Below, in pieces: positions 428 to 43,720 of a DNA stretch of 64,000 nucleotides (its first letter is position 1; every line of letters begins with the position of its first letter). The DNA comes from a virus: IMG/VR virus record IMGVR_UViG_3300044712_000083, positions 50,192 to 114,191 of that record; one strand, written 5' to 3'. Both the position numbers and the translations under genes were made by a program. The notes beneath the pieces were generated by a model that was not told where the DNA came from, searched no databases, and saw nothing but the letters and a program-made list of their open reading frames with translations.

Positions 428-435
428 AAGAGATG

Positions 436-1015: not shown

Positions 1016-1021
1016 AGGTAT

Positions 1022-1072
1022 AGAAAAACCATAGAATCCCCAGCCTTTTCAGGAGGGGATCTATGTAGTTTA
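1022..1072 (-). terminator. Terminator/attenuator-like hairpin just upstream of the lysis genes
   Basis: On the minus strand CATAGATCCCC...GGGGATTCTATG forms a stem followed by GTTTTT. Confidence 0.55.
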
Positions 1073-1140
1073 ACAAAAAGAGAGAATGAAAAATCTTAGG
1101 AGGATTCCGAAGAGTTGAAGTTGGTAGGAAACTTCTGTAG

Positions 1141-1172
1141 CAAATATATGTAAGCTAAATTAAATAAGCAAG
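1141..1172 (-). promoter_or_regulatory. Bacteroidota-type sigma70 promoter
   Basis: Minus strand reads CTTG-N20-TATATTTG, matching the TTG/TAnnTTTG consensus. Confidence 0.65.
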
Positions 1173-1187
1173 TAAATTATATAAAAT

Positions 1188-1616
1188 TTATGAAACTAAC
1201 TTAAATAACACTACATAATTGTCATTGGTGGTAACGCTTTCTAAATCTGAGATAGATAGAGGAGTGTATTCAATTTCTTTCTTCTCATTTAATAATTCTG
1301 TATAGCGTTGTTGAAGTTCAATAAACTTTGGATTGATTTTAGTTTTAGCTTCATCTTCAAACATCTCAACAGTTATATTACCATCTTCTTTTTCTTCACC
1401 GTATTCTTTAATTAACTCAGTTTTTAATTTATCAAGAATTTCTTTTTCTTTTACTAATTCAGTAGCAATTTTTGATAAACGATACTTAGTTGCAAGATTA
1501 AGTTTCTCTTTGAGGAAACCTTCCACAACTCTTTGATTTGTTTGGGGATCTGTAAATCCGTTCAACTCAGCTTCTAATGTAAGAATCTCAGCTAATGATA
1601 ATTCAATTTGTGCCAT
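1188..1616 (-). CDS. Phage coiled-coil protein, DUF1617-like
   Basis: Acidic helical protein with a KYRLSKIA...LIKEYGEE pattern, directly downstream of the tail fibre. Family recognised from memory. Confidence 0.5.
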   Translation of the reverse strand: MAQIELSLAEILTLEAELNGFTDPQTNQRVVEGFLKEKLNLATKYRLSKIATELVKEKEILDKLKTELIKEYGEEKEDGNITVEMFEDEAKTKINPKFIELQQRYTELLNEKKEIEYTPLSISDLESVTTNDNYVVLFKLVS

Positions 1617-1638
1617 TTTTATTTAGTTAGTTTATTTG

Positions 1639-1646
1639 CAAATATA
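1639..1646 (-). promoter_or_regulatory. -7 promoter element TATATTTG
   Basis: Exact TAnnTTTG 22 nt upstream of the 1616 start codon. The -33 box is weak (TTCG at N20). Confidence 0.5.
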
Positions 1647-1651
1647 TAAAA

Positions 1652-5668: not shown

Positions 5669-5714
5669 GGTATGCAATTAAATTTTAATATAAAAATACG
5701 GAATTGTGTTGAGT

Positions 5715-5744
5715 TGTAGGATAGTTATAGAAAACTATCCTACA
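5715..5744. repeat. Perfect 12-bp inverted repeat between the cargo gene and the tail fibre gene
   Basis: TGTAGGATAGTT-atagaa-AACTATCCTACA. Confidence 0.8.
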
Positions 5745-5752
5745 TAATATAG

Positions 5753-11278: not shown

Positions 11279-11279
11279 A

Positions 11280-27416: not shown

Positions 27417-30400
27417 TTATAGGTTTTTAATTGCTCTAGCTAGATTACCACCATTTCTTGTAAGTACATCTTCTGTATCATCATCACTACTAGCTTTAGT
27501 CTTTTTAATTGTGTAACCTTTAATGTTTCCATATGGATCGTATTGAGGAAGTAATGTATTACCGCTCTCATCATCAATTACTCCCATACCTCTAGACTTA
27601 CTTGAACCTCCTCCAGACATATTGAAAAAAGTATTATACAATGGATTTTTGTAAGCTTGTCCGCCAGGAGTGTAGTTAAATGCTGGGAACGTAGCACGTG
27701 CAACATTAAATTGCATTTGCTCATTTCTAGCTTTAGCAATCTTCTCGCCAATAGATTCCAATGCAGCTTGAGTTTGTTTAATTGTATTTTGCTTAGCTCC
27801 AACCATCTTATCAGCTTGGTCAGCATACAATTGAATGTTAGCCATTTTAGCTTGATTCAATGCATCTGTATTAGCTTTCATTACATTAAATCTCTGTTCT
27901 TGATTTGCTAGTAAAGCTTTTGATCTAATTTGATTCTTAGCATTGTAAGCTTGAGCAGCTGCATTTGCAGCAAGTTCAGGATTATTTTGCATTAATCTAT
28001 ATGCAGCATTTGCTTCAGAAGTAACTTGATTTATCTGATCATCCATTCCGATAGAATACGGAGCAATCAATTCAGGAGTGTATGATTGTGCAAACACTGG
28101 CTCTTGCTGATTGTTAGCTAATGCAAAACGCTCTCCTAGTAATTGATTAGCATCTAATTTATATTGATCAGAACCTTGAACAAAAGGAACAAGTGAATTA
28201 AGTGCAGATCCAAATATATTAAGTAATGAGTTATCTTTTGGAGTAGCGGCATTCTTTTTTGCTTTACGTAACTTCTCTTCTGCCTCAGATACCCCTGGAG
28301 TGAATACTCTAGATTCAGCAGGCATCCAGTTTGGTACATTAGGAGCATATTCTTTTGGTTCTTCTCCTTTAGGAATTGGTTGTACAGCTGTATCAATACT
28401 AGTATTCCTAGGCTCAACTGTGTCATATATCTTTTTTGTTACAGCTTTACCAAGTGCATTTGTTGCTGGTCCAAATCTACCATCTACAACACCCTTCTTT
28501 GTAACTTTCTTCATTCCTGTAATTCTCTTAACCTCATCTGCACCAAGTGCTTCAAGAGCTGCTTTTTGGAATTTACCAATAGCCATCGCATCTTTAGTCT
28601 TTACAGCTGTTTGATACAATGCAGCAAGATCACCAAGAGTTTTCATATTCAAGCCATCTTTACCAAGAGCTAAACCATGTCTACCATAGATGTCTGATTC
28701 TTTCAATGGTGTAATCTTACCCTTAGCAAGATCTGCAGCTTTGTAACCAAACTCTTGAGCAGTATCTTTAATTGCATTCTGTAAAATAGCATATTCTTGA
28801 TTCTGTTGACCAAGTTGACCTAGTTTCATCTTAGCACCATCCTCAATAGCCTTAGCTGTATTTAATCTAATCTTATCTATAGTAGTATAAGTCTTTGTTT
28901 TATTAGCTAAGTCTGCAGCTTTTTGTAAAAGTTTAGTTTGTTTTTGTTCTTTCATAGCAATGTCTTTAACATCTTTTTTAAACTGTCTATTAGTTATAGG
29001 ATTAACCATTGCTCCAACTACAATCTTATCACCAGAATTTCCGCCATTTTGCATACTCATTACAGGCTCATTAGTTTCAATCTCTGCTTGTGCATCATCT
29101 ATTGTACCACCTTGCTCATACCCTACACCAATTCCTGTTTGTCCTGTACGAGAATCTCTCTTATCATGAGAGTTTCCTACAGCAAGATCTATTGTTGTAC
29201 CTGTAACAGGGTTGTATGATAATGGTTCAAATCCTCCACCCCACAATGCATGTAGTTCACCATCAGAAGTTGAGCCTTGCATTTGTCCACCATATTGCAT
29301 TTGATATGGTAAGTCACGTCCTGTGTACATAGCTCTTTCACTAGGTGGAGTGTATTCTTTTAAATGTCCACCTGCGCGTAACATATCAGCATCAGCTGGA
29401 GGTGCAAACAATTGATCGACATCATAATCACCAAACTTAGCAATTACTTGTGGATTGTATTCTGGATTCATATATCCTCCCTCTTCTAAAGTCATTCCAT
29501 TTTTAGCAAATGACTTATATTTACTTTGCAACAAGTCTTGTGTAGAAGCTGTACCCACTAATCCTATTCCTTTGTTTCTTTTCTTCTCTGCTTCTTCCAT
29601 GGCATTCTGACCAATTATTCCACCAATAAATCCTCCAGCGGCTGAACCTATTGCTGAACCAGCAGGACCAAAATATGCACCAGCTAGTCCACCAATAGCA
29701 GATCCTGTATCAGCTGCTGTATTAGTTTTAAACTTTCCTCCACTAAATGCAGATCCTGCAGATCCTCCTATTGCACCAAATGTTGGAGCAAATTTAGCAT
29801 AGTCTATAGTTCCTCCAGTTTGGAATTGTTTAATGTTACTGTCACCTAATGGTTCAAATCCAAGATCAGAATACAAGTCACCAGGATTGTACATGTTCTG
29901 AATCTCTGTAGGATTACCACCAATCTCAGATCCATTTCTAGATAAGTAAGTGAAGTTAGGATCTCCTAAAGGTTTGTACATTTGTCCTGGAGTAGTTCTT
30001 GAATCTTCAGGACGCATAATTCTTTGCGGATATTGTTCAACTGGTTTGATGCCTTTTTCAAGATCAGCTATCTTAGCAAGAGCATCCATTTTTCTAAGTT
30101 GATCTCTTTCTTCAGATAATGCTTGAAGACCTCCTACAATACTATTAGCAGAACTTAATGCTGTTTTAATAAACTTTTCATTACGTTCTTTCTTAGCTTT
30201 TTTTGCAGCAGCATAAGAATCTTCAACCGAAATACCTTTATCAATAGATTTATCCATTGCATCCGTAGTAGATTGAATATTCACAGGAGCTTGAGCTTTT
30301 TTTATAACAGCACTATACTGAGCCTTCTGTAATTTTTTACCATGCTTCTCCATGAAAGCCTCCTCTGTAGGATACTTCTTGTAGAATTCAGCTTCTGTTT

Positions 30401-30434
30401 TAACTCCAGCAATTTTTAAGATTTGAGCTTTCAT
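27417..30434 (-). CDS. Cargo/ejection protein with glycine-zipper membrane segments and xxxGG repeats
   Basis: AIGGLAGAYFGPAGSAIGSAAGGFIGGIIG, GNSHD...EIETNE, a Gln/Ala-rich helical C-terminal half, and many (F/L/M/Y)xxGG motifs. Confidence 0.7.
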   Translation of the reverse strand: MKAQILKIAGVKTEAEFYKKYPTEEAFMEKHGKKLQKAQYSAVIKKAQAPVNIQSTTDAMDKSIDKGISVEDSYAAAKKAKKERNEKFIKTALSSANSIVGGLQALSEERDQLRKMDALAKIADLEKGIKPVEQYPQRIMRPEDSRTTPGQMYKPLGDPNFTYLSRNGSEIGGNPTEIQNMYNPGDLYSDLGFEPLGDSNIKQFQTGGTIDYAKFAPTFGAIGGSAGSAFSGGKFKTNTAADTGSAIGGLAGAYFGPAGSAIGSAAGGFIGGIIGQNAMEEAEKKRNKGIGLVGTASTQDLLQSKYKSFAKNGMTLEEGGYMNPEYNPQVIAKFGDYDVDQLFAPPADADMLRAGGHLKEYTPPSERAMYTGRDLPYQMQYGGQMQGSTSDGELHALWGGGFEPLSYNPVTGTTIDLAVGNSHDKRDSRTGQTGIGVGYEQGGTIDDAQAEIETNEPVMSMQNGGNSGDKIVVGAMVNPITNRQFKKDVKDIAMKEQKQTKLLQKAADLANKTKTYTTIDKIRLNTAKAIEDGAKMKLGQLGQQNQEYAILQNAIKDTAQEFGYKAADLAKGKITPLKESDIYGRHGLALGKDGLNMKTLGDLAALYQTAVKTKDAMAIGKFQKAALEALGADEVKRITGMKKVTKKGVVDGRFGPATNALGKAVTKKIYDTVEPRNTSIDTAVQPIPKGEEPKEYAPNVPNWMPAESRVFTPGVSEAEEKLRKAKKNAATPKDNSLLNIFGSALNSLVPFVQGSDQYKLDANQLLGERFALANNQQEPVFAQSYTPELIAPYSIGMDDQINQVTSEANAAYRLMQNNPELAANAAAQAYNAKNQIRSKALLANQEQRFNVMKANTDALNQAKMANIQLYADQADKMVGAKQNTIKQTQAALESIGEKIAKARNEQMQFNVARATFPAFNYTPGGQAYKNPLYNTFFNMSGGGSSKSRGMGVIDDESGNTLLPQYDPYGNIKGYTIKKTKASSDDDTEDVLTRNGGNLARAIKNL

Positions 30435-30435
30435 A

Positions 30436-33400
30436 TTAATCTTGGTATTTATCTAACCAGCCGCCTGGTTGTTTAGTGTTGTAATTAGTAAAGTTAGTTA
30501 ATTGGTCCAGCTTTGTCAACTGTCCTCCTTGTTTCATCATAGGGTACTCTGTAACAGAATCTCCAATGTATTGATACTCTTGGTTAGGATACATCATTTG
30601 CATGTCTCCTGTGTCAGATATACCTAGTACAGGATAAGGTACACCTTTCATTGTTATCTTATTAGATTTGATCTTAGTAACTTTTCCAGGATGAGCCCAT
30701 TGTCCCATATCATCTTCAATCACAGAACCGTTCTTAGAGATTGATTTAGGTTTGAAGTCTAAACCATTCTGATAAAACTGCATTCCATTTTGTGCCATAG
30801 GTAATCCTTGTTGAGGATCATTGGCTGCAATAGTATTTAATAGTTCAACAACATCCTCAGGACTCATTATTTTTAAAAGATCTCTTAGTCCAGAGACTTT
30901 ACCTTTTAAACTATTAACATGTTCAAGTGTAGCTTTATCTGTTTTAGGATCATAATACTGATATTGATTATCACTTGATTTAAAACCTGAACCAAAACCT
31001 GAACCAGAAGATTGAGCACCTACATTATTACTTTCATCATTTTTTATTAATAAAGGATATTTCTTCAATGCTCCACGAATCTCTTGAAGTCTACCTGTAA
31101 CTTCTGTTGGCTCACTTAAATACCTATATTTATCCACACCAACCTTTTCTAACTTCTTACTTACTTGTTCAGAAGTTCCCATTGTTTTATTAGAAATTAA
31201 ATTCTTTTCATACTCAGTTAGATATCTTCCCCCATCATCATAAGCATGTCTAAATTCATGTCTTACTGTATTTCCAAATTCATCAATACCATACTTATCT
31301 AAATTATCACTTAATGATATTAATGCACCTTTATTTTCAGGATCATAGTAACCAAGTACAGGACCTGTACCACTAGCTGTTCCACTACCTGTAACAAACT
31401 CTACTGTAGGATTAGCTAATTTACTTTCTCTTTTAACAAGTAGTTCCTTTGTTCTTTTATCTAAAGCATCTTTATCTACAGCACCTAAATCAATATTTTG
31501 TTCAGCAGCCATATCATGTCTAACTGCATCTTCAAGCATGTTATATCTAAACTTAGATCTACCTTCTTCAATAATATCCAAAGGTGCTCTATTCATTATC
31601 TCTTCTTCTTGCTTAATTCTTCTTTTATTTTTTGTAGTTGATTGTTTAACAGGTTCTGTTTCATTTAATTCTATACCATCTACTGCAGAAGGTAATGTCT
31701 TCTTAGCATACGGACCATTGCTAGGAGCAGGATTGTTTGTACGTGCGTATGTGAATCCTACAGCTCCTGGAAGAGAGCCCCCCATTGCATAATCTCTAGT
31801 TTTAAATAGTAAAGGAATGTTCTTATTCTTTTCTACATAGTCATGTCTAAACTTAGCAAAGTCTTCAGCAGATTGTATAGTTTTAAATGGACCACCTAAA
31901 TGTTCTCCTGTAAAATTAAACAATCCTTCAGGATCCTCCACTAATCTTCCTTGTTTAAATCCTGGAACTAAGTAGTACTCACCATCTTTACCAACTGTTG
32001 TAGAATACTCTGTAGATATTCCGTTTTCTCTTGGATTATATCCAATATTTTGAAAAGTTTGAGTTGGTTGTAAGAACTTCTTAACAGGTCCACCATCTTC
32101 AAACTGTCCTCCCCATGCAGGAGAATAGTTACGTCCTACGTTACTATATCCACTACCTTCATATCCTTCAGGAGCTGAGACTGTATAGTTGTTAGCATTT
32201 AAGTCTCCACCATCTTCATACTTATCTAACCAACCTCCTTCTTTAAATTGTAAGAATGGTTTAGTAAGTTTAATCTCAGTAGTTGGAGTTATAGAATTGA
32301 TAGGAGCATGTTGCTTAATATTGCTCTTTACTTTATTTAAGTAATCAAATCCTTCAAACTTTGGGTTATCTTTAAACTCATAGAAGTAATCTACAAGTTC
32401 TTGATTGTTAGCTTTACTTGGAGAGTTCCAAGATAACGTAGCCATATCATATAACTTCTGATCACTCCAATCAGGATGCTTCTTTGCTAATGAATTTTTT
32501 AAATCATAGAAGTTAGCTATTGCTGCAGTTAATTCATTTTCAGCACTGTTGTAAAAATCATTCTTACCACCTTTACCTATTTTTAAATCTCCTTCAGTTA
32601 AACCTAATCTCTTTGCTGTTTTAGATAAGTATTTTTGTCTAAATGTACCAACAGATGGATCTGTATTAGATAAAGCAAAAGGCTTTGGTCTATTATAAGT
32701 AGTAGTATATAAACTCTCCAATGCTTCATTAAATGAAATACCTTCTTTCTCTGCTAGTTTACTAGCTTCCATTTGCATTTTACTTTTGCCAGGAAATTCT
32801 AATAAATCTGGATTCTCTACATATTTTCTATTGCCATATTCTTTAACAGCATTTATAACTTCCTTAACAGGTTTAGTTAATCCTACTTCTCTTAATTTAT
32901 CTTGAATTAGTACTTTGGCTTTAGTTAAACCTTTTGCCATTTTACCAGACATCTTAGATTCTTGGATACCAATACCTAATACATGTCTGAAGATTTGATC
33001 AAGCTCATCTGCATGAATACCTAAGTTACCAATTAATGTAGGTTTTATTTTATCATAAACTTCTTTATAAGGTTCTAGTTCTGGACTCACTCCAAAATCT
33101 ATTGTACCTGTATTTAAGTTTATATCATTTAGAATAGCTCTCTTTGCAATCTCTTTGGACTTACCTACAAATTGCTGAGGTCTAACAATACTTCTAATTC
33201 CTCGATTAGAAGCAGCATTATAATAAACATTGTTTTGTATAGGCACAGTAATTAACCTACCATCAAAACTTTCACCAATCAATAGATTATTTCCATCTGG
33301 ACTCATGCCCACAACAGTTGCTCTATGATTAACACGTGGTTCTTTAAGATTTCCAGTAAGAGGAGATTGTTGAGGATGTGCAAGAAATGCGTCTGGACCA

Positions 33401-36099
33401 AACATCACTTGATCACCAACTTGTACATTTTTTAAAATATCCGAATTAAGTGGTCCGTGTGTACCTTCATTATATACTAACTCTCCCTCATTCTTTAACA
33501 TCTGATATGTAGTGTACCAAGCATTGTCTGCATTAGCAGCATAGTTATATGCTTCACCAGGAAGTATTTGTCTACTAACACTTGATGCTATAGAATTTGC
33601 AATCTTTGCACATTCTGCATCAGATCCACACCCATGCATTAATTTATTTCTCTGGTATAGATGACTTAAGTTTTTATCATATACTAGTTTCTTAAATTCT
33701 TTACTTGTTTTATAACCTGTTGGAAATAACCCACTACCAGACCCTGGTTCATAAATAGGTAGCTTGTATTGTTCTGCTAATTCTGGATAAGCATCCAAAT
33801 GCTGATCTATACTGCTAGAAAAGTCTCTACCTATATTAGTGTCAAATAAATCATCTATAATATGAGAAGGTCTTATGTAACGCTTTGGCTCAGCACTAGT
33901 ATTAATACTAGGTGTTCTACGCAGTGCACTAACTGCTTCTCCTAAAGTAGATCTTACTCCTGGTAATGCAGATGCTACAAACGGTAAAGCATTTAATGCT
34001 GTATATCCTGTTTGCAAAGATGCATCTGCTATATTTCCTGAAGTAGGATCTTTAAAAGCTTTCTTAACTGACTGTGCAACATTAGGTATATTATTAGCTG
34101 CCTCATATGCAAATCCAGCATTCAAAAGATTATTAGCAGTTAATCCTGCTACTCCAGCTATAGGAGCTTCCATTGCTGCTCCTATGTATGGTAATATTGC
34201 AGGACCAGCTACAGCACCCGCAGCTATGGCAGGAGTTGTATACATGAACTGATTAGCAGCTACATCACCTGCTGTTGGATTGTATCCAGTAGGGGTTAAT
34301 GAACCAAAGGTTTGGGCAAGCTGAGAGTTATTAATCATATCTTGTCTCTCTCTAGCTTTTTTAACTGCAGCTCTTTGAGAAGGTGATATGTTATCTGCAG
34401 AAATATATGTTTGTCTTTTAGCAGCTTCTGCAGCAAGTCTAGCTTTTTCTATCTCAGCATCTCTTGCTATTTCTTCTTTAGTCTTTAGACGTACTTTAGC
34501 TGGTTGTTGTACAGTTACAGCATCTTTCTTAGCAACAGTACCACTATATTGATATTTATCTAACTCACCCCCATTCTTGTATGGATTAAGAATAGATGTT
34601 GTAATTTCTGAAGGACCTGTTGTATTTTCTACACGTCTAATCAATCCTTTAGGTAATAATATTTCAGATTCATTAGGGAATTTACTATAACTTGTTGCAT
34701 TAGGAAATGCATAAGATTGCATTCTGCCACCTGGAAGAATTATATTATCTAAGAATTTATATTCATTTTGGTGATCCATGTTGTAAAAACTAGTAGGTAA
34801 TGATGTAGATAAAAACTCATTGTCTTTATATATATCTCCCACTTGTAATTCTGATCTACGTTTTTTACCAAGAAATGAATTAGTATTAGGATCAATTAAA
34901 TTTACATCGTAGTTATTAACTGTTCTATTAACTACTGTTTCTTTATTAATTTTATTTTTTAAAATTGCATCATTTAATCTATCAGATAATGTTGTAAAAT
35001 GATTTATTAAATTTTCAGGTAATTTTCCAGTTGCGGATACTCTATTATTAAAATAAGGATAATAACTTTCTGTATAAGCACCCATCAATGCTCGTTCTTC
35101 TGGAGTTAGTTTAGAAAGATCATAACCTTCAGTATCATAGAATTGCTTAGAGGCAACACCTCTTAGATCATAATTACCAGACTTCATGAAACTGTGTTCA
35201 GGAGCTATATAATCATTTATAGTATATTGTGGCAATCGATCTGCAACTCTTAATCTCATGTTCAATAACATAGCTTGATCAACAGCCTCTCGTGCGTTAA
35301 AATCTCCTTGACTGATTAAGTCAGGTCTTAGTTCATCAACTGCTTTATTATATATTTCCTTTAATTCCTTATCTGAAAACTTAGTAAAATCATTTCCAAG
35401 TGCTCGTTTAGCAAATTCTATATGTTGAGTAGGTTGATAATCAGAGATAGGTCTACCATATTTTTGATGTACGTTACGAGATACACCTGCTGCTTCTTGT
35501 AAAACATCATTAGTAGTATTAGCTACTTGACCAGCATCAGCAATATAATCTGTTACACCTGCAACTTTTGCAGCATTAGCTGGAATATTTGCAGCATTAG
35601 CAAATGGTCTATATGCTGCTAATCCTAATCCTGTAAGTCCCGCATTAAGTAAAGCAGAACCATAGTTACCTTGCAATGCATCTCTTCCTCCTAAATAACT
35701 AGAACCAGCCATGCTTAATAATGTACCAGCACCTTCAAGATATGGGGAAGCAGGTCCTGTGATTGGAGCAATCAGTTCTAGTCCACCGCCAATATATTGA
35801 GCCTTATTAGCAACATCGTCATACATCTTTTGTCTCTGCTCTTGTGTAGCTATGTCTTCCATAGCTTGCTTCATAGCAGGAGAAGCAGATGTACCTAGTT
35901 TATTAATGTAAGTTTTTCTCTTAGCTACCTCCTCATTAAACTTATCTTTTCGATTAGCTTCTATTCTTTTCAATTCTTGAGAATCCAATACCTTTGGAAT
36001 AACTACTTTATCTTTCTTAACAGTAGTTAATCCAAATGGATCTAAATTACCATCGTAAGCATATTTATCTAACCAACCTGAAGATTTCTGCTTTCCCAT
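30436..36099 (-). CDS. Polyvalent cargo protein: ADP-ribosyltransferase, Cys-His amidase-like, lysozyme-like and zincin metallopeptidase domains
   Basis: ART: R...FLSTS...ESEILLPKG. Amidase-like: ECAKIAN...NAW...NHRATVVG. Lysozyme-like: GIQES...SVGTFRQ...SWNSP. Zincin: HEFRH...EPTEVTGR. The GWLDKY/GELDKY motif occurs 4 times. Confidence 0.75.
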   Translation of the reverse strand: MGKQKSSGWLDKYAYDGNLDPFGLTTVKKDKVVIPKVLDSQELKRIEANRKDKFNEEVAKRKTYINKLGTSASPAMKQAMEDIATQEQRQKMYDDVANKAQYIGGGLELIAPITGPASPYLEGAGTLLSMAGSSYLGGRDALQGNYGSALLNAGLTGLGLAAYRPFANAANIPANAAKVAGVTDYIADAGQVANTTNDVLQEAAGVSRNVHQKYGRPISDYQPTQHIEFAKRALGNDFTKFSDKELKEIYNKAVDELRPDLISQGDFNAREAVDQAMLLNMRLRVADRLPQYTINDYIAPEHSFMKSGNYDLRGVASKQFYDTEGYDLSKLTPEERALMGAYTESYYPYFNNRVSATGKLPENLINHFTTLSDRLNDAILKNKINKETVVNRTVNNYDVNLIDPNTNSFLGKKRRSELQVGDIYKDNEFLSTSLPTSFYNMDHQNEYKFLDNIILPGGRMQSYAFPNATSYSKFPNESEILLPKGLIRRVENTTGPSEITTSILNPYKNGGELDKYQYSGTVAKKDAVTVQQPAKVRLKTKEEIARDAEIEKARLAAEAAKRQTYISADNISPSQRAAVKKARERQDMINNSQLAQTFGSLTPTGYNPTAGDVAANQFMYTTPAIAAGAVAGPAILPYIGAAMEAPIAGVAGLTANNLLNAGFAYEAANNIPNVAQSVKKAFKDPTSGNIADASLQTGYTALNALPFVASALPGVRSTLGEAVSALRRTPSINTSAEPKRYIRPSHIIDDLFDTNIGRDFSSSIDQHLDAYPELAEQYKLPIYEPGSGSGLFPTGYKTSKEFKKLVYDKNLSHLYQRNKLMHGCGSDAECAKIANSIASSVSRQILPGEAYNYAANADNAWYTTYQMLKNEGELVYNEGTHGPLNSDILKNVQVGDQVMFGPDAFLAHPQQSPLTGNLKEPRVNHRATVVGMSPDGNNLLIGESFDGRLITVPIQNNVYYNAASNRGIRSIVRPQQFVGKSKEIAKRAILNDINLNTGTIDFGVSPELEPYKEVYDKIKPTLIGNLGIHADELDQIFRHVLGIGIQESKMSGKMAKGLTKAKVLIQDKLREVGLTKPVKEVINAVKEYGNRKYVENPDLLEFPGKSKMQMEASKLAEKEGISFNEALESLYTTTYNRPKPFALSNTDPSVGTFRQKYLSKTAKRLGLTEGDLKIGKGGKNDFYNSAENELTAAIANFYDLKNSLAKKHPDWSDQKLYDMATLSWNSPSKANNQELVDYFYEFKDNPKFEGFDYLNKVKSNIKQHAPINSITPTTEIKLTKPFLQFKEGGWLDKYEDGGDLNANNYTVSAPEGYEGSGYSNVGRNYSPAWGGQFEDGGPVKKFLQPTQTFQNIGYNPRENGISTEYSTTVGKDGEYYLVPGFKQGRLVEDPEGLFNFTGEHLGGPFKTIQSAEDFAKFRHDYVEKNKNIPLLFKTRDYAMGGSLPGAVGFTYARTNNPAPSNGPYAKKTLPSAVDGIELNETEPVKQSTTKNKRRIKQEEEIMNRAPLDIIEEGRSKFRYNMLEDAVRHDMAAEQNIDLGAVDKDALDKRTKELLVKRESKLANPTVEFVTGSGTASGTGPVLGYYDPENKGALISLSDNLDKYGIDEFGNTVRHEFRHAYDDGGRYLTEYEKNLISNKTMGTSEQVSKKLEKVGVDKYRYLSEPTEVTGRLQEIRGALKKYPLLIKNDESNNVGAQSSGSGFGSGFKSSDNQYQYYDPKTDKATLEHVNSLKGKVSGLRDLLKIMSPEDVVELLNTIAANDPQQGLPMAQNGMQFYQNGLDFKPKSISKNGSVIEDDMGQWAHPGKVTKIKSNKITMKGVPYPVLGISDTGDMQMMYPNQEYQYIGDSVTEYPMMKQGGQLTKLDQLTNFTNYNTKQPGGWLDKYQD

Positions 36100-36100
36100 A

Positions 36101-36967
36101 TTACTTGTAAGAGATTTGACTTGGAGCTAAAATGAATTGAGATACTAAATGAACTGTAGAACTATTATCTAAAATGTGTCTCACTTTTAAATCTTTAGCT
36201 CGTAGAGGTGCTTTGTTAAATGAACGTGTAGTATAATCTAAATTGCTTAGATTAAGCTCTTTATCTATTGATAAAGATTGACAAGTTGTACCGAACATTG
36301 GCTGGTTTGGATTCTTAAGAATAGACCAGAAAGTATTGTATTGATAGAAGTTGTCGGATTTGGTTACTAATATACTCTTACTATCGTTAAAATACAAGGG
36401 GTAAGCCATATATGCAGCAAGATTATTTTGTGGTTTAGGTACCAAGTTCAATAAACCTGTACATTGCTGACCATTATATAGGATAGCTTTGTTAAAATAT
36501 TTATTAGTTTGGATTACTGCATTGTCATTAAATACACCATCTGGTATAGGAAGATATTCGTAAGCTTTAGTAAAGTCTACAATATTTTGTAAAATCTCAT
36601 CTTGTACTTGATAAGCTATTGGATACTCAATAATGTATGGCTCAACATTACCATAGAACTTGTTATAGTTAATAACATCAGTTAAATGTCTCCATAGAGA
36701 TGTTGTATTAGTAGGAGTGAATACAATATTATTAATCTGAGCATTTGTTAAGTATTGAATATCAATGGACTTAACTGTCTTACACTTACCTATAGATGAC
36801 AATACAATCTTAGTCGCAGCGTCACTTACATTATTATAAGTGACACCAAGAATCAATTGTTGTTTTGTAACACCGCCCCCTAAAAACGTTCCGATATTAT
36901 CTCGAACGTCAAATGGACCGACACCATCTCCAGCACTTTCTAATTTTACAATTACTGTTTTAGGCAT
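36101..36967 (-). CDS. GPF-type small domain fused to the probable C-terminal part of the muzzle/tail stabilisation protein
   Basis: The N-terminal ~70 aa are paralogous to the N-termini of 47283..47897 and 47923..48561. They are followed by SLWRH...YNKFYG...PYIIEYP...FNKAILYN. Confidence 0.6.
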   Translation of the reverse strand: MPKTVIVKLESAGDGVGPFDVRDNIGTFLGGGVTKQQLILGVTYNNVSDAATKIVLSSIGKCKTVKSIDIQYLTNAQINNIVFTPTNTTSLWRHLTDVINYNKFYGNVEPYIIEYPIAYQVQDEILQNIVDFTKAYEYLPIPDGVFNDNAVIQTNKYFNKAILYNGQQCTGLLNLVPKPQNNLAAYMAYPLYFNDSKSILVTKSDNFYQYNTFWSILKNPNQPMFGTTCQSLSIDKELNLSNLDYTTRSFNKAPLRAKDLKVRHILDNSSTVHLVSQFILAPSQISYK

Positions 36968-36985: not shown

Positions 36986-39900
36986 TTAGCAGATTCCATC
37001 TGATATCACTGTACCACCTGTATTCAATTGAATATATCCGTTGTCAGTGTTGTAATATCCAGATCCTAATGTAGATGATCCAATTGAATCTGTGTAGATT
37101 GTTTTACCTATACTAGGAACACCACCTGTACAGTATGCTAATTGATCTACAGCTCTTGTACAAACATTGACAGGCGTTCCAACTGTACTGATATAGAATG
37201 GATCATATGAAGGAGGTACGTATCCACATGTAGGGCTATTAACTTCAACTACTTGTTGATTTCTTGTAGCACTTGTACATGAGTTAACTTCTTGGCTCCA
37301 TAGAGTAAATCCTACACAGTAGTATTGTAAATCCCAAGTACCACAGCTTTCGCTCACTGTACCTGTATCAATTGTTCTTGTAGTTCCTGCAGCACAAGGA
37401 TTAGTTTGTACTTGATCTTGACGTAATGTACATGATCCTGTTATGCAATATGCATTTCCTGAATTAACCCAAACTGGAGTAGTGTCAGGATAAGAGTTAG
37501 AAGGATTAGTTGATTGCCATGTTCCACCTACTAAATAGATGTTAGCTCCTGTGTAACAAGGATTGCTATTAACATAAACTGGAGTTGAATTAACTGTACC
37601 ACTTGAACATGTGTAGTATGTACCTACTTGACCTCCTTGGGTTTGAGTGTTACTAGCACCGCAAGCACCACTACATGTTACATCGTAAGTGTTACCTGTT
37701 GGATTACCATTACAGTAGTATTTCTCAATGAAACGCTGTGTTGTTCCTAAACAAATGTAATCTGTGTAGTAAGTTCCGTTACATGCTTCATTACACTGAC
37801 AAGAGCAATTACTAATTACATAAGATGAACTTTCTCCACAGTCATTGATTGTAGGTTGAATCAATGCGTTTCCACTACATATTGGAGATCCCGAAGGTAC
37901 ATAATTTTGTCTATTATACAATGTAAATGTTAAATTATTACCAGCAGTTAATGTAACAGTTGATCCACTGCCGTATGACGATCCATTAAGTATAGCTGAA
38001 CAAACATAGAAACCATCATAGTCTACACGAATTGTAGTTCCTACAGGATAACTTCTAGAACCTCCATCCCAACTAGGATCTGCAGTACCATTGATATAAG
38101 GTGTGTAAGAACTAACATTCAATCCATTTAACGGATTCAATGTTACTGTTACAGGAGCAATAGTAGTACTTGTAGTAGTAGTACTGCTTGGAGGTACAGT
38201 GGTACTAGTTGATGTAGTAGATGTTGAGCTAGTACTTGTTGTTGTACTTGTACTAACAGGATTCATATAAAGTGTAATAGGATCACTAAGGTTAGTACAT
38301 GCTGCACTACCAACATATGCTTGAATAAAGTTACCAGTAGGAGTACCATCCCAATCAACATTAATTGTCTGACTTCCTGCAGAATTAAATGTTAATGATA
38401 TAGGAGTTCTAGTTCCACCAGCAATTGAAGTACCGACTACAATTGGATATGAAGTAGAGCTAGGAGCACTCATTGTAACTGTGTAAACAGCAGATTCAAA
38501 TGGTGCTACTGTTGTAGGTCCTGTGAATGTCCAATCACCATTTACAATCGGCACACATGCAAGCGTTGTACTTGTACTAGTTGTAGAAGTAGAAGTAGAA
38601 GTAGACGTACTTGTTGAAGTAGATGTACTAGATGTAGATGTTGAAGTAGATGTTGTAGGTCCTACATATTCTGTTGTTGTACTAGTAGTAGTTGAAGTAG
38701 GTCCTGAGGTAGTACTAGTAGTGGTACTTGTAGTTGGAGTTAGAGTACTTGTAGTACTTGTAGTTGGAACTATTGTAGTAGTAGTACTAGTTGTAGGAGC
38801 AATAGTAGTAGATGTGCTTGTAGTTGAAGTAGTAGATGTACTTGATGTTGACGTAGATGTTGAAGTCGAAGTAGATGTACTAGTTGAACTTGTAGAACTT
38901 GTTGTAGAAGTTGTTGTTGGAGTGTAGTTTATAGCATCAATAGTAAACACACAACCTTCTTTAACTGCATTTCCTACCAACTGACAAGGAGTTACATATG
39001 ACGCACTACCATTCAATGAACAATAAACATCTATTGGTCCAAATGTAGTTGAAGTAGTTGTAGTAGATGTACCAAGAATTGTACTAGTTGTAGTAGTAGT
39101 TGATGGTCCTACATATGCAGTGGTAGTTGTTGTAGTAGTTAATCCTGATGCAATAGCAGAAAAATCACAACCTTGATTGTTTCCAGAATAGAAGAAGTTA
39201 TTCTCAGCAATGTAATAGTTAGGAATATAACTATGGAAAGAGATCCAACTCTTTGTATTCATGTTGTAAGACAATGTCCATGACTTATTACAGAAGTATG
39301 TAATGTCATTTAACTGAACAACCTCTTTAATTGTAGTATTTCCTGCAATAGGATAGATGTAATATTCTTTATAGTAACCTACTTGTGCAGGATCTGTACC
39401 ATAGAAAATCTTACCAACCCAATTTGGTTGTGGGATGTAGTCAAGTTTAGTGATAATGATTCTATCAAATTTAGAATCATACACACCTGTTAAACCAACC
39501 TTAGTATAATTGTTATCTACATCAGCTTCAGGGAAGTAACGTAAGATTTCAAATGCTAAATGGTCAGTCATAAAACGATTGACACCTGAACCAAATGCAG
39601 ATAAGTCCACAACTTGTGTTCCTGTTACTAAGAATATCTGTCCACGTTTAGCATCAATTGTTACTTGTCCATTAGGAATCTTTAGCAACATCTTGTGTTG
39701 AGATCCTACATATCCTAAATCTGTCTCAGCAAAATCAATTGGAGGAGCAGATCTAAACAATGTAGAATTACCAATATAAGCAGCTTGTGGATTGCTTGTA
39801 TCGATTGTAAGCATTGTGTTGTATAACAATGACTTATTCTCAAAACGAGCTAAGATAGCCTTGTTTTGGATACCATCTAATGATGTAAGCTTTCCGTATG

Positions 39901-42900
39901 TTTGAGGGAAATCAAAGAAAGAAGCAGGTCTATACAATAACCAGTTATTCACCTTACTTGTAGAAGATGGATCTTGTTGATCTGAATATATAGCTCTAAA
40001 CGGAAACTCTTTTTCACAAGCACTATTTGTCCAATTTAAAGGAAGGTGTGAGAAGAAGTTCTCTGTATTCTGTTTAGAATAACTTAAGTTGTAGTAGTAT
40101 GTATTATCTACTGCAATAGGTACTCTAACTTGTTGCAACCAATCATCAGGAATACCAGAACTTACACGAGGGTAGAAGTTACCTTCATTACCATTATATG
40201 CTTGACGCAAGTCTAAGTTGATAGAACTCTCACAATAGAAGTAAGGAATTCCATACGCAAACATATACATCTTACCATCGTAGAATGATTGAGTATTACT
40301 TAAACTTGTAGCTCCATCATAATTAGTACCACTAGGTGGGGTTGGTGTAGTTGGTGTACTTGTATATATAGGATCAGAAGGGCAATCAAAACAATGTGCT
40401 TTGATTGAAATAAAATTTGTTAATGTATCACTTCCTAAAACAATATCACTCAAAACAGAACGAGATGAATGCCAGTATTGAGGATAAGCAATATTACCTA
40501 ATTGATCATAATTAATATCTGAATCATCTGGAGCTAATACCCTATTGTCAATAAAGAATGGAAGTTTAGTTTTAAATGCAAACTTACCAATGAATGTATC
40601 ACCACCAAATATAGTTTTAACTCCTGTAGGAGAATCTCTATCTACTTGGAATCCTGTATCAATTGTTTCGTATGTATAGAGTTGTCCCCATTGATTACGA
40701 ACAACATTCTTAATTGATGCATAGTAAGATACAACCTTAATAGATTGTAACTCTTCAGGAACTGCACATTTCTTTTTCTGTGATAATGTAAATCTAGAAT
40801 CATCAGAGATTTTACCAGCAATAGAATCTATATCATTTGGAAATCTAAGAGGAATAACTGTAGTAGTGTTATCACTACGCTTTTCTATAGTTTTTAAATA
40901 AACAGATGACTCACGTTGGAAGTTATTAAGATCCCAAGTATCTCCTACTGATTGTACGCCTGGATATACATATTGATACTTATCAAGTTGTCTTTGCTTA
41001 ACACCATCACCGTTCTGAATATTTCCAAAATAGTCATAACTTGCAATTGAGTTGAATGAGTATGCAAAGTTTTTTCTAGTAATTCCACTAATATAAATCT
41101 GTAGATAAGATTGGTATGCAGCAAATACAGCATTCATATCTCCATCTGCTATAGCATAGCTAGAAACTAATGCTTTTTGTTGAATAGCTTTTGTAATTAG
41201 CTTATAACTTGCATTACTTTTAACAGGAACAAAATGTGCTTTTCCTGCTCCATACATTACATTCTCAAGCTTCAATACATCTCCTAATGTAGGTTGTCCA
41301 AACGATGTTTCAGGAGAGTTAAATACTTGTCTGTATTTAGTTTCATTATTAATCTGACCACCTGGCTCATTGTTTACAGTAAAACCAGTGAATTTTTTAG
41401 GATAACATTCAGGATTAAATGAATCTGTAGATGTTGTTATATAATTCTTTGATCCACTTACATATGTTAACTTTGCACCAATTGGAAATCCAGGAATTTC
41501 AATATATTCAACAAGAACAGTTTTTGGAGAATCTGCTACAGTAACTGTTATTTCTTTAGTAGCTCCATCTGCATACGGATCTCCATATGTAAATTTAGTA
41601 GAATCTAAAGCTCCGTCTTGATTTACAACAATAGTAACGACAGTTGTATATTTCCCAATGTATGGACTAAATATGTTACATACTAATCCACCTGTTTTTT
41701 GTGGAAATGTAGTTGAGCAAACATATTGTGGCTCCGTTTGAGCAACAATATTAATTGTTTTTACTTCATTAGTAAAACAGTCATTATAAATTAATGAGCC
41801 AGGAGATGTAACACCAGTAATCTTATACTTCTCCGATTGACCACTATATGCATTGTTTTGCTTAAGTAAGAACGGATCTGTGTTAAGATCGTTATATGGA
41901 TAGTTAGGATAATAGTAGTATGTAGGATTAGGAGAACTTGATTCATCTCTTGTATATCTACCTACGTTTCTTAAAATACCCTTTGCAACAATAGATTTGT
42001 TTGTATTACGATTACCACGGACAATCTTATATCCAGCAATTTCGTTTCTTTGTTCAGGAGTTAAGTATGTCTGAATTAATGATTCAATCTGTGCTGTGTC
42101 AACTCTAATACCAAGTGGGTAGATAGCATTAGCAGATTTCATCTCCACTTGATACTTACCTGCAACTTCGACAGGAGTAGCACTTTCAAATGCAGGACTT
42201 ACTAAAATATCAGGAAACTTGTGATGACGAATTGGTCCTGTTAATCCTGCTTCTGTAAATACTGGTCCTTTATATTCTTCAGTTGATTGCCAGAATGCAA
42301 AATCACCATATTGATATGGTGTTGCACCATTAATTGTTGGTCCTGTAGCAGCAACCCCATTACCTGCAGTGTTATACACTTTCCAACGATCAAGTGGTTG
42401 CAATGTATCATCCTCAGCAATATAGTCTGGATTACTTTTATCAACTTTAGGATTTATATCTGAATCTTTAATTGCTCTTCCTGGAATATGGAAACCATCT
42501 GTCTGCTTACCATTCTTTAACAAGAATACAATCTCAAATGCATATACCTCATCACGTAGATAACCACGTAAATTAAGTGCATTTAATTCATCTGCATAGT
42601 TTTGCCCTGCTGCCATTTTGTATGACTGCCATTGCAATGTAATTCTAGCAGCAACTTTTTGATAGTCAACTCTATTATTAGATTTTAATCCATCCCAAAT
42701 CAAAACATCCTGTACAGAAGTTACATCATTGGCAATATCATAGTATGGATACTTCTCAAAGATTTCTTCAATAGCTACAGCAATTGGAGTTTTGTTTTGT
42801 CCAGAATAGATGACAGTATTTTTACCAGTAGTTGCACCAGTTTCAGCAGGAATTTTATCAATTAAGTATGTACCTAATAACTCAGCAGAAGTTGCATTAT

Positions 42901-43720
42901 TAACTGTTTTAATTACAGCAACATTGTAATAATCAAAGTAACCTTTGATATCAATGTTAGTAATAGTAAGCTGAATAGACTTGTTAACTTGATAGTTGAA
43001 GTCTTGTGTTTCTACAGTTGTATTAGCAATAGGAAGAGGATTCGTAACAGAATAATAAGATGTATATCCTGCTCCTGTAGAACTACAATACTGAATAGCA
43101 AACTGATATGTACCAGCAATCAACTCTCCACCATTTAAAACATCTGTAACTGAAAGTTGAGGGATGTCAAAATTAGGTTGGATATTTAAAATATTACAAT
43201 CAGTTAATTCATTATCATCAGTATCAAATCTACCTAAGTCTAAATATCTACGAGGGTTTTTACCATCAGTCCAATATATCTCAATAGAAGGCTCATCATC
43301 AATTACACAATTTGCAACCTTATGTACAACTTTATGTATAGGATAGTTTACATCAAAGTTCAAACATGCTCCTTTGACGTATGTATGATATTTACAATCA
43401 TTATTAACCATGTAACCAATCTGATATTCAGGATTGATTGAACTAGGTTTCATTAAAAAGAAAACATGTTTATTCTGTTCAGGAATAAAATGTTTACCAA
43501 TTAAAATAAAATTATCAGGAAACTTTACGCATAGCTCATTACCTGCTTCATTCTGATAGTTAACAGAATTAGCATCAAAGTTTTCTACAGCAGCATTCAA
43601 TGCGTAAGTTAAACTTCCTTTAGGTATTTGTGCTACTGCACTATCTAAATTCAGTCCTGTTTGTGCAAAGTTATACTCGTTAGTAACGTTACCCTGATTA
43701 GTTGTTTCTTCTGCGGCCAT
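36986..43720 (-). CDS. Muzzle / tail stabilisation protein (N-terminal part) with a Thr/Ser-rich and Cys-rich C-terminal extension
   Basis: LTYALNA...NEAGN, CLNF...PI, YWTDGKNPRR, RGYLRDEVY, FGGDTFI, DAKRG and WTLSY...WISFHSYIP. It follows the ring-protein gene, as in crAss-like tail modules. Confidence 0.75.
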   Translation of the reverse strand: MAAEETTNQGNVTNEYNFAQTGLNLDSAVAQIPKGSLTYALNAAVENFDANSVNYQNEAGNELCVKFPDNFILIGKHFIPEQNKHVFFLMKPSSINPEYQIGYMVNNDCKYHTYVKGACLNFDVNYPIHKVVHKVANCVIDDEPSIEIYWTDGKNPRRYLDLGRFDTDDNELTDCNILNIQPNFDIPQLSVTDVLNGGELIAGTYQFAIQYCSSTGAGYTSYYSVTNPLPIANTTVETQDFNYQVNKSIQLTITNIDIKGYFDYYNVAVIKTVNNATSAELLGTYLIDKIPAETGATTGKNTVIYSGQNKTPIAVAIEEIFEKYPYYDIANDVTSVQDVLIWDGLKSNNRVDYQKVAARITLQWQSYKMAAGQNYADELNALNLRGYLRDEVYAFEIVFLLKNGKQTDGFHIPGRAIKDSDINPKVDKSNPDYIAEDDTLQPLDRWKVYNTAGNGVAATGPTINGATPYQYGDFAFWQSTEEYKGPVFTEAGLTGPIRHHKFPDILVSPAFESATPVEVAGKYQVEMKSANAIYPLGIRVDTAQIESLIQTYLTPEQRNEIAGYKIVRGNRNTNKSIVAKGILRNVGRYTRDESSSPNPTYYYYPNYPYNDLNTDPFLLKQNNAYSGQSEKYKITGVTSPGSLIYNDCFTNEVKTINIVAQTEPQYVCSTTFPQKTGGLVCNIFSPYIGKYTTVVTIVVNQDGALDSTKFTYGDPYADGATKEITVTVADSPKTVLVEYIEIPGFPIGAKLTYVSGSKNYITTSTDSFNPECYPKKFTGFTVNNEPGGQINNETKYRQVFNSPETSFGQPTLGDVLKLENVMYGAGKAHFVPVKSNASYKLITKAIQQKALVSSYAIADGDMNAVFAAYQSYLQIYISGITRKNFAYSFNSIASYDYFGNIQNGDGVKQRQLDKYQYVYPGVQSVGDTWDLNNFQRESSVYLKTIEKRSDNTTTVIPLRFPNDIDSIAGKISDDSRFTLSQKKKCAVPEELQSIKVVSYYASIKNVVRNQWGQLYTYETIDTGFQVDRDSPTGVKTIFGGDTFIGKFAFKTKLPFFIDNRVLAPDDSDINYDQLGNIAYPQYWHSSRSVLSDIVLGSDTLTNFISIKAHCFDCPSDPIYTSTPTTPTPPSGTNYDGATSLSNTQSFYDGKMYMFAYGIPYFYCESSINLDLRQAYNGNEGNFYPRVSSGIPDDWLQQVRVPIAVDNTYYYNLSYSKQNTENFFSHLPLNWTNSACEKEFPFRAIYSDQQDPSSTSKVNNWLLYRPASFFDFPQTYGKLTSLDGIQNKAILARFENKSLLYNTMLTIDTSNPQAAYIGNSTLFRSAPPIDFAETDLGYVGSQHKMLLKIPNGQVTIDAKRGQIFLVTGTQVVDLSAFGSGVNRFMTDHLAFEILRYFPEADVDNNYTKVGLTGVYDSKFDRIIITKLDYIPQPNWVGKIFYGTDPAQVGYYKEYYIYPIAGNTTIKEVVQLNDITYFCNKSWTLSYNMNTKSWISFHSYIPNYYIAENNFFYSGNNQGCDFSAIASGLTTTTTTTAYVGPSTTTTTSTILGTSTTTTSTTFGPIDVYCSLNGSASYVTPCQLVGNAVKEGCVFTIDAINYTPTTTSTTSSTSSTSTSTSTSTSTSTSSTSTTSTTSTSTTIAPTTSTTTTIVPTTSTTSTLTPTTSTTTSTTSGPTSTTTSTTTEYVGPTTSTSTSTSSTSTSTSTSTSTSTSTTSTSTTLACVPIVNGDWTFTGPTTVAPFESAVYTVTMSAPSSTSYPIVVGTSIAGGTRTPISLTFNSAGSQTINVDWDGTPTGNFIQAYVGSAACTNLSDPITLYMNPVSTSTTTSTSSTSTTSTSTTVPPSSTTTTSTTIAPVTVTLNPLNGLNVSSYTPYINGTADPSWDGGSRSYPVGTTIRVDYDGFYVCSAILNGSSYGSGSTVTLTAGNNLTFTLYNRQNYVPSGSPICSGNALIQPTINDCGESSSYVISNCSCQCNEACNGTYYTDYICLGTTQRFIEKYYCNGNPTGNTYDVTCSGACGASNTQTQGGQVGTYYTCSSGTVNSTPVYVNSNPCYTGANIYLVGGTWQSTNPSNSYPDTTPVWVNSGNAYCITGSCTLRQDQVQTNPCAAGTTRTIDTGTVSESCGTWDLQYYCVGFTLWSQEVNSCTSATRNQQVVEVNSPTCGYVPPSYDPFYISTVGTPVNVCTRAVDQLAYCTGGVPSIGKTIYTDSIGSSTLGSGYYNTDNGYIQLNTGGTVISDGIC
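38160..39145 (-). repeat. Low-complexity Thr/Ser codon tracts (mucin-like) inside the muzzle gene
   Basis: Three tracts at about 38160-38260, 38560-38925 and 39040-39145 encode TTSTTSSTSSTSTST-type sequence. Confidence 0.9.

Follow-up and report, generated by a model that had tools for sequence, protein, structure and literature searches.

Repeated WLDKY tags in a variable cargo protein of an uncultured crAss-like phage and a candidate receptor domain on its neighbour

The locus

The DNA analysed here, which we call the window, is a stretch of 64,000 nucleotides (positions 50,192 to 114,191) of the IMG/VR virus record IMGVR_UViG_3300044712_000083. The record is complete, with 114,191 bp and direct terminal repeats, and the window is its right-hand 64 kb; all large genes of the window lie on the minus strand. 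Two adjacent genes are the subject of this work. One encodes P1, a hypervariable protein that carries four copies of a short tag, WLDKY, and the other encodes P2, which opens with a conserved domain of 36 residues (N-domain). We weigh here whether the tags are docking handles for this domain. A first-pass annotation of the same DNA had seen in both proteins a single system of GG tags, serving either for docking and packaging or as protease sites.

The terminase, portal and major capsid protein of the genome match PHROG families, and this portal shares about 25% identity with those of crAss-like phages from the gut, of Flavobacterium and of Cellulophaga. The muzzle gene is followed downstream by a 288-amino-acid (aa) protein (p288), P1 (1887 aa), P2 (1005 aa) and then proteins of 900, 4448 and 1841 aa. 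In crAss001 the genes at this position after the muzzle encode cargo proteins C1 and C2 together with the RNA-polymerase proteins of the virion (PMC10172136). P1 and P2 head the large genes of the cargo block in a distant, uncultured member of the Crassvirales. Cargo proteins travel inside the virion and enter the host by injection. The cargo context is supported by the muzzle gene upstream, by matches of P2 to crAss C1 proteins in BFVD, a library of predicted viral protein structures, and by the ADP-ribosyltransferase (ART), ART-PolyVal and SET domains found in the variable proteins.

36986..43720, minus strand: crassvirus muzzle gene, 2244 aa (Pfam PF25731 crAss_MUZ, E 6.9e-37; PHROG virion structural protein)
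30436..36099, minus strand: P1, 1887 aa, hypervariable polyvalent cargo protein with three units, each bounded by WLDKY tags (open reading frame, translation)
36061..36078, minus strand: tag 1, GWLDKY, P1 residues 8-13, N-terminal copy with a single Gly before it instead of GG
34552..34572, minus strand: tag 2, GGELDKY, P1 residues 510-516, degenerate internal copy directly after the ART domain
32218..32238, minus strand: tag 3, GGWLDKY, P1 residues 1288-1294, at the start of the core module common to all relatives
30445..30465, minus strand: tag 4, GGWLDKY, P1 residues 1879-1885, C-terminal copy, two residues ahead of the stop
27417..30434, minus strand: P2, 1005 aa, C1-like carrier cargo protein (BFVD Foldseek, hhalign to gp45, position downstream of the muzzle)
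30327..30434, minus strand: N-domain of P2, residues 1-36, proposed WLDKY receptor (AlphaFold2, conservation, distribution, Glu24 covariation)

Two classes of repeat

The repeats listed by the first-pass annotation are all present where it had placed them. They are real, but two classes had been merged into one system: WLDKY and a general linker motif are distinct elements. The pattern G.LDKY occurs four times in P1 against 0.00 expected from 2000 composition-preserving shuffles, and the DNA word for WLDKY is found three times in the whole 114,191-bp genome, every time in P1. The second element, Phi-x-x-GG, was counted as [FYMLW]xxGG. P1 has eight copies (2.4 expected; 5 of the 2000 shuffles reach eight) and P2 has nine (1.7 expected; reached by 0 of 2000). 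The 900-, 1841- and 4448-aa proteins hold only 0, 2 and 3 copies, and the earlier remark that they show no such series holds.

Across about 60 related loci the density of Phi-x-x-GG is 5.7 per 1000 residues in cargo proteins compared to 0.9 in other large proteins. The motif forms fixed, invariant alignment columns in P2 homologues, and it is present in the split and fused gene forms described below alike, in the C1-like protein and in gp45 of crAss001. When P2 is modelled with AlphaFold2, six of its copies fall in stretches of low confidence and three in the loops of a beta domain. The gp45 copies (SAYGG, FAEGG, NAFGGW, FAYGG) bracket the segments ordered in cryo-electron microscopy, residues 214-245 and 425-552 (PMC10172136). 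Phi-x-x-GG is a separate, older feature that marks flexible joints and conserved disordered segments of cargo proteins, while WLDKY occurs only in the separately encoded variable protein.

Exchange of modules at the tags

For comparison we used sixty IMG/VR loci with the same gene order, and a non-redundant set of 42 loci. The protein at the P1 position ranges in these relatives from 193 to 1848 aa. Its C-terminus is almost always GGWL(D/E/N)KY plus 0-2 residues, its N-terminus is often M-x(1-6)-WLDKY, or a small CxC...CxxC zinc-ribbon-like piece and then GGWLDKY, and some relatives have further internal copies. The sequence after an internal tag in one phage forms in another phage the N-terminal start just after MxxWLDKY; modules are therefore gained and lost at the tags. 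Homology breakpoints between variable proteins lie no more than 15 residues from a tag in 31% of cases compared to 15% for random positions, with the caveat that the high-scoring segment pairs are not independent. In P1 the breakpoints cluster at tag 3, FEDGG, YAMGG, MAQNG/FYQNG and MKQGG. The idea of swappable cassettes from the first-pass annotation is supported by the spread in length, by the exchange at the tags and by the selection that acts on the tags themselves.

This selection is seen in the codons. A degenerate DNA scan of IMG/VR for GGWLDKY gave at least 145 matches on at least 119 contigs, nearly all of the P1/P2 family, with about ten chance matches in small open reading frames. 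Sixty-two of these matches lie 0-3 residues before a stop, and where the locus reaches past this stop the next gene starts with MKxxILKIAGVK in nearly all cases. Within the tags synonymous codons vary freely while the amino acids stay near-invariant, and tags and N-domain are under selection at the protein level. It is very unlikely that the repeats have no protein function and are only boundary sequences promoting cassette recombination, or scars of it. Such an account would fit the recombination hot spot that reaches from p288 to mid-P2, the number of tags, which is that of the modules plus one as if genes starting and ending in the same word had fused, and a mild excess of TTA and GGC among the tag codons. 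The free variation of synonymous positions in tags and N-domain speaks against it, and a DNA-level account fails because amino acids co-vary between two different genes, as shown below.

The position of the tags bears on a further alternative. Of 85 unique WLDKY copies, 21 come within 2-7 residues of the initiator Met and mostly lack GG, and 38 have 0-2 residues behind them. Adenain and the protease of African swine fever virus (ASFV) cut at Gly-Gly sites, and the first-pass annotation had offered di-glycine cleavage as one of two functions. Both GG-WLDKY and Phi-x-x-GG would then be cleavage sites, and P1 and P2 polyproteins that release their effectors at maturation or after injection. The motifs do lie at module boundaries and in predicted disordered linkers, P1 has an HExxH motif and a Cys/His region, and for polyvalent phage proteins a processing by peptidase domains of their own has been suggested (PMC5512222). 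However, a cleavage-site role is senseless for terminal WLDKY because these copies abut the start Met or the protein end. In the Gly-Gly processing of adenain (C5), Ulp1-like C48 and ASFV pS273R the sites are internal to a precursor and the residues recognised lie upstream of the cut, whereas these WLDKY copies are terminal. The clan CE cysteine protease families C48 (PF02902) and C5 (PF00770) have no match in the complete genome at E <= 1, and neither have the prohead proteases S78 and S77, these four families being all that were scanned. The insert with the HExxH motif is present in few relatives only, and gp45 of crAss001 was modelled as one chain from tail to portal (PMC10172136). Bands 1-10 of the crAss001 virion gel, analysed by matrix-assisted laser desorption/ionization, gave no gp45 tryptic masses and are uninformative on its intactness (PMC6235969, supplement 14). 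Cleavage would also leave unexplained the joint loss of tags and N-domain in fused forms and the complementary charge changes of tag and domain. Cleavage at WLDKY is unlikely, plain Phi-x-x-GG sites may or may not be cut, and that P1 and P2 are polyproteins cut at both motifs is improbable.

Domains of P1

The three units of P1 contain the following features besides the tags.

34621..35115, minus strand: ART domain, P1 residues 329-493 (Pfam PF03496, E 1.7e-9, 37.7 bits against a cut-off of 23.4)
32245..33762, minus strand: probable CHAP-like and lysozyme/SLT-like wall-degrading region, P1 residues ~780-1285 (protein-atlas feature lead, no Pfam hit)
31246..31260, minus strand: HEFRH (HExxH), P1 residues 1614-1618, in a core-module insert that few relatives share (no Pfam hit)
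30541..30732, minus strand: small conserved beta domain in the core module, P1 residues 1790-1853 (near-invariant alignment columns; BLAST to all loci)

The ART is the sole P1 domain confirmed by Pfam. For residues ~780-1285 a feature-based atlas gives leads, and no more than leads, to CHAP and Lysozyme_like/SLT clusters (0.88-0.92). Of the effector domains that had been placed between the tags, the ART stands on Pfam, and the lysozyme-like domain stays an atlas lead. Both cysteines of P1 (824 and 830) fall inside this CHAP/lysozyme-like region. Polyvalent proteins combine at least two unrelated effector domains in one polypeptide, which in P1 are the Pfam-supported ART and the CHAP/lysozyme-like region of the atlas lead. 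The small beta domain is followed by MKQGG, LDQLTNFTNYN and tag 4. P1 and P2 have no PHROGs match and no phmmer match to PDB sequences, and tblastn with P1, P2 and the N-domain against 50,697 GenBank phage records found nothing. Pfam searches of the 42 variable or fused proteins gave one exotoxin-type ART (that of P1), one ART-PolyVal and one SET. Its place within the cargo block suggests that P1 is packaged and injected, and hence delivered with the DNA.

Three observations on the variable proteins may be added. A zinc-ribbon-like mini-piece, M..K[IV].C.CGHSW.KS.SSKKD...CH[IV]CGK.N, stands directly before GGWLDKY within the first ~45 residues of many of them (L003, L004, L006, L007, L028, L048, L053, L056 and others); P1 of the window is without it. 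A second recurrent element, (K)LDQLTNFTNYN, lies ahead of the C-terminal tag (window 30466-30498), and a look-alike of it, KQLTQLTDFSNPP, follows the N-domain in a C1-like subgroup (L007, L048, L053, residues ~45-60). Finally, the N-terminal units of P1 (residues 14-170 and 517-720; window ~33940-36060) share one layout with P2 residues 30-280, in which a tag or the N-domain is followed by a charged helical stretch, a Gly/Ala-rich hydrophobic segment and then an enzyme or beta domain. P1 508-563 and P2 30-83 align weakly (E 0.017), with GGELDKYQYS placed over HGKKLQKAQYS.

P2 and its N-domain

The N-domain, MKAQILKIAGVKTEAEFYKKYPTEEAFMEKHGKKLQ, is by far the most conserved part of P2, with many invariant positions and synonymously variable codons. 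Searched against 1.84 billion proteins, its profile matches 806 clusters (50% identity), and in the best 150 of these 806 the domain begins at, or at most 15 residues from, the first residue of the protein. A word-based search gave 562 clusters at 90% identity, none of them with a Pfam domain. No carrier was found among the 50,697 GenBank phage records, and no cultured phage with it. AlphaFold2 predicts three short helices with a predicted local distance difference test (pLDDT) of 82-89, in P2 alone and also in a read-through construct. The latter comes from L057, one of several loci in which the variable and C1-like genes lie in the same frame, 21 nt apart. Here TAA was read as Gln, and the folded sequence ran from 24 tag-bearing residues over a spacer of 9 residues into the beginning of P2, with an alignment of 34 rows. 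In this model the tag forms a short helix (WLDKYN) in a block with pLDDT 65-72, compared to ~40 in other disordered parts, which is weak and indirect support for docking.

The 21-nt spacer between the two genes, AAACCTGTACAATAACATATT and variants, is conserved in a subgroup of loci (L007, L009, L018, L048, L049, L053 and L057, positions 9980-10000); it is in frame and holds one or two extra TAA codons.

Behind the N-domain two further regions of P2 can be distinguished.

29259..29972, minus strand: P2 residues 155-392, conserved yet predicted disordered (AlphaFold2; invariant GG columns)
28995..29258, minus strand: P2 beta-strand region (AlphaFold2 strands 394-472, pLDDT 67-83; hhalign to gp45)

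Residues 155-392 carry LSRNG, FQTGG, FAKNG, LEEGG, LRAGG and MQYGG and a glycine-zipper hydrophobic segment. The pLDDT falls below 50 over 155-238, 286-331 and 348-392, where the model is of low confidence. The glycine zipper at 244-280 is a weak Pfam hit, the only one of P2, and hydropathy peaks at 255-279. The beta domain is placed at 393-480 by AlphaFold2.

For comparison with C1 we used the crAss001 structure (Bayfield et al. 2023, PMC10172136) and Pfam PF25725 crAss_CARG1. Like gp45 of crAss001, P2 is encoded downstream of the muzzle (in its case three genes) and has a glycine-rich hydrophobic segment in its N-terminal part, long disorder and a predicted compact beta domain, the homology of which to that of gp45 is tentative. 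With hhalign, P2 family residues 379-479 align with gp45 424-490, where that protein's portal-bound domain starts (E 1e-3, probability 21%; motifs GxSHxE, GIxxG, VExGE). In BFVD, Foldseek matches the P2 model to crAss proteins labelled 'Cargo protein 1 compact domain' (E 2e-6 to 6e-3, template modelling (TM) scores low), and also to a crAss002 protein and Cellulophaga phage structural proteins. In contrast, PF25725 gives no candidate in the whole genome, P2 included, at E <= 10, and Foldseek of both AlphaFold2 models, P2 and read-through, against the PDB gives nothing at E <= 0.001. Given these mixed profile and structure matches, and no match to PF25725 or the PDB, we call P2 C1-like and not a proven C1 member. 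There are also differences from gp45, which has neither the 36-residue N-domain nor an adjacent gene for a WLDKY-tagged partner, and the parts of the crAss001 paper available to us mention no such pair of tag and receptor (PMC10172136).

Split and fused genes

In 8 of the 42 non-redundant loci the variable core module and the P2 core form one open reading frame (fused state). All 34 split loci are tagged. The eight fused loci have no canonical tags and no N-domain, apart from one degenerate WLDAY relic, and their flanking sequence is kept. Canonical tags are likewise absent from ten further fused metagenome proteins, and a search for more fused forms returned only contigs already in the set or their close relatives. 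The presence of tags and N-domain is linked to the split gene arrangement in an all-or-none fashion.

The junctions show what is lost. The fused form reads ...LDQLLNFTNYN-DMAKAKKGKKLPKAQ..., whereas the split form reads ...NFTNYNxxxxGGWLDKYx-stop and continues in the next gene with MKxxILKIAGVKSEKEFYKKYPTEEAFMKKHG-KxFKKAQ. The N-proximal tag is also gone in fused forms. It behaves as a 14-residue indel, PYKA[ EEGGWLDKYDAPKA ]QNGIEG, such that FFGAIAGGAxPYKAQNGIEG of the fused form corresponds to FFGAIAGGAKPYKA-EEGGWLDKYDAPKA-QNGIEG of the split form.

The fused state is scattered on the tree of the neighbouring 900-aa protein and needs at least three changes on the tree of the junction-adjacent segment. 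Close pairs with 70-88% DNA identity in the flanks that differ in state are unalignable only from the end of p288 to mid-P2. The genes for the muzzle, p288, the 900-aa protein and the polymerase are the same in closely related phages of either state, and in the sampled neighbourhoods of the close pair whose gene lists were compared there is no other difference in gene content.

The pairs L011/L038, L046/L028, L052/L018 and L023/L057 (locus ~7000-11500) outline a sharply bounded recombination hot spot between the end of p288 and about the middle of the C1-like gene.

Covariation between tag and domain

At position 24 of the N-domain, 253 of 254 database proteins and 82 of 83 locus sequences have Glu, and in pairs with Glu24 residue 4 of the tag is Lys or Arg in 75 of 77. 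Locus L026 has Lys24 together with WLDEF in both tags and is the only IMG/VR contig with Lys24 found from the domain side. The only contig with Gln24, L204, has WLDNF as its N-terminal tag and WLDTL as its C-terminal one. A scan that set out from the tag, for NGGWLDE(Y/F), led to the distant lineage L206, which has WLDEY twice and a C-terminal WLDDI; its next gene begins MSKIDEILAEAGF...FYKEFPTKEDW, with Lys at the position of Glu24. These complementary charge changes in three unrelated lineages match the prediction of a direct contact between Lys4 and Glu24. A Fisher estimate for the association of the two positions, made by hand, is ~1e-4. By its sequence, L206 shows that the pair of tag and domain reaches beyond the canonical family.

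L206 is IMGVR_UViG_3300008261_000125, reverse strand 3-5770, and its divergent N-domain reads MSKIDEILAEAGFPNTPEGKAAFYKEFPTKEDW...

A second association links Gly10->Lys of the domain to a C-terminal WL(N/S)KY (7 of 10 against 0 of 65). It is confined to one clade (MKDQ) and therefore counted as one event; a search for Lys10 in N-domains of the MKAQ type gave 0 matches.

The covariation also bears on the choice of partner. The tags could dock elsewhere: to the muzzle, the portal, the rings of the tail barrel or the inside of the capsid. The N-domain would then signal independently to whichever of these the tags bind. The tail-barrel rings of crAss001 are contacted by short helical stretches of gp45, and its muzzle by an unassigned helix of 14 residues (PMC10172136); in the WLNKY clade the change of the C-terminal tag was not shared by the N-terminal and internal copies. 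However, two binders of a common site should shift their charge in the same way, and what is seen is complementary: K4 with E24, E4 with K24, N or T4 with Q24. Moreover, split and fused relatives keep the same muzzle, p288, 900-aa protein and polymerase, and nothing else nearby co-varies. A shared partner elsewhere in the particle is unlikely.

Docking of the variable protein to its carrier

We consider it probable that the WLDKY tags are docking handles that bind the N-domain of P2 and thereby tether swappable effectors to a carrier. The motif and its distribution, the selection at the protein level, the all-or-none link to split genes and the charge covariation are what the sequences show. 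Of the two functions offered by the first-pass annotation, docking is supported, with the qualification that presence and absence and the charge covariation make the N-domain of P2 the likely partner, and not the capsid interior or portal; a di-glycine protease site finds no support for WLDKY, given the terminal placement of many tags and a genome without matches to C48, C5, S78 or S77.

The handle, (K/N)-G-G-W-L-D-K-Y, would be a hydrophobic knob of one to two helical turns (W, L, Y) held between flexible glycines, which P1 would present at its C-terminal end, at or close to the N-terminus and from one module to the next. The receptor would be the three-helix domain at the start of P2, and the contact would include tag Lys4 and domain Glu24 in a predicted salt bridge. 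A separately encoded effector protein would in this way be held non-covalently on the leading end of the carrier. P1 would be loaded into the particle and leave it with the carrier because it is tethered to it via tag and N-domain, and phages that encode both parts in one polypeptide would need neither tag nor domain. With nothing but the small tags to preserve, recombination in the hot spot could exchange modules freely. The beta domain of the carrier may, as an analogy with gp45 suggests, sit on the portal and its N-terminal part may reach into the tail, which would bring those modules of P1 that degrade the wall or modify the host to the head of the ejection train. Physical binding, the location in the virion and a role in loading and ejection are inferred.

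Several points weigh against this interpretation. It leaves unexplained why one protein would need two to four handles. In the MKDQ clade the C-terminal tag alone has changed (to WLNKY or WLSKY) and the N-terminal copy is still WLDKY, so that tag copies need not all use the same site. The fused and split states may have been spread by recombination, and the three transitions are a minimum count of events and no proof of repeated invention; with three pairs the sign test cannot reach significance. Moreover, the N-terminus of P2 is placed in the tail lumen by analogy with crAss001, while P2 has no match to PF25725 or to a solved structure.

A more far-reaching version would be a self-contained loading system, in which any module with GG-WLDKY is captured by the N-domain, packed into the virion and injected from it. 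This is conceivable, if somewhat doubtful. If true, a large uncultured crAss-like group could swap injected host-takeover and anti-defence enzymes at will, and a 7-residue tag and a 36-residue domain could be used to load chosen proteins into such particles. Binding, if confirmed, would also make the pair usable as a small protein-tethering tool. Particles of the Crassvirales carry megadaltons of protein cargo, and the crAss001 structure left open how this cargo is selected, ordered and ejected. The locus gives a testable rule for one step of cargo loading, and the N-domain is found in at least 800 metagenome protein clusters. Docking would explain, too, why a first cargo gene that is a hot spot of recombination still keeps its position in the particle.

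Comparison with known systems

Short terminal peptides that direct diverse cargo into a container are well established, as in the cargo-loading peptides of encapsulins, the encapsulation peptides of microcompartments and the capsid targeting sequence of T4. These peptides bind the shell or a scaffold, and the cargo can be swapped if the tag is kept. WLDKY resembles them in being short and conserved, in sitting on a flexible linker and in being common to otherwise unrelated cargo. There are distinct differences, however. The receptor suggested by the covariation would be a small domain on another cargo protein, and WLDKY also occurs internally, in two to four copies, and appears only together with the split gene.

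P1 further resembles the polyvalent proteins that phages and conjugative elements encode (Iyer, Burroughs, Anand, de Souza, Aravind 2017, PMC5512222), large virion-delivered strings of unrelated effectors, among them ART, lysozyme and peptidase domains. One relative of P1 carries ART-PolyVal, a family defined in that work. Unlike in P1, a conserved junction or terminal peptide and a receptor domain do not figure in the parts of that publication available to us, and the word 'linker' is absent from its main text. The autoproteolysis that it proposes as an organising principle is not supported for P1. A literature search found no publication that names WLDKY as a protein motif and no later work on crassvirus cargo loading. 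Docking of a tag to the N-domain, which we consider probable, would be a mode of cargo loading that has not been described before.

Neighbouring genes

The p288 gene (36101-36967) between muzzle and P1 keeps its length in relatives (288-301 aa, mostly 288-290) and has no PHROG or Pfam match. The idea that it is a detached C-terminal piece of the muzzle gains no support from hhalign with the final 625 residues of gp44 from crAss001 (E 0.075).

P2 and the 900-aa protein contain no cysteine. The 4448-aa protein has two in all, one of which is its final residue (...LIC; window 11280-11282). It faces the sole cysteine of the 1841-aa protein, which starts with MATC (window 11267-11278). A link between these two would be covalent, a disulfide in the polymerase part of the block, unlike the non-covalent contact proposed for WLDKY and the N-domain at another junction.

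At the C-terminal end of the 4448-aa protein, residues 4255-4371 (window 11514-11864) form a NADAR-like domain (Pfam PF08719, E 1.2e-7, 32.6 bits, slightly below the cut-off of 35.1; also phrog_1017). Since NADAR enzymes act on ADP-ribose adducts, this domain may be a counterpart of the ART in P1.

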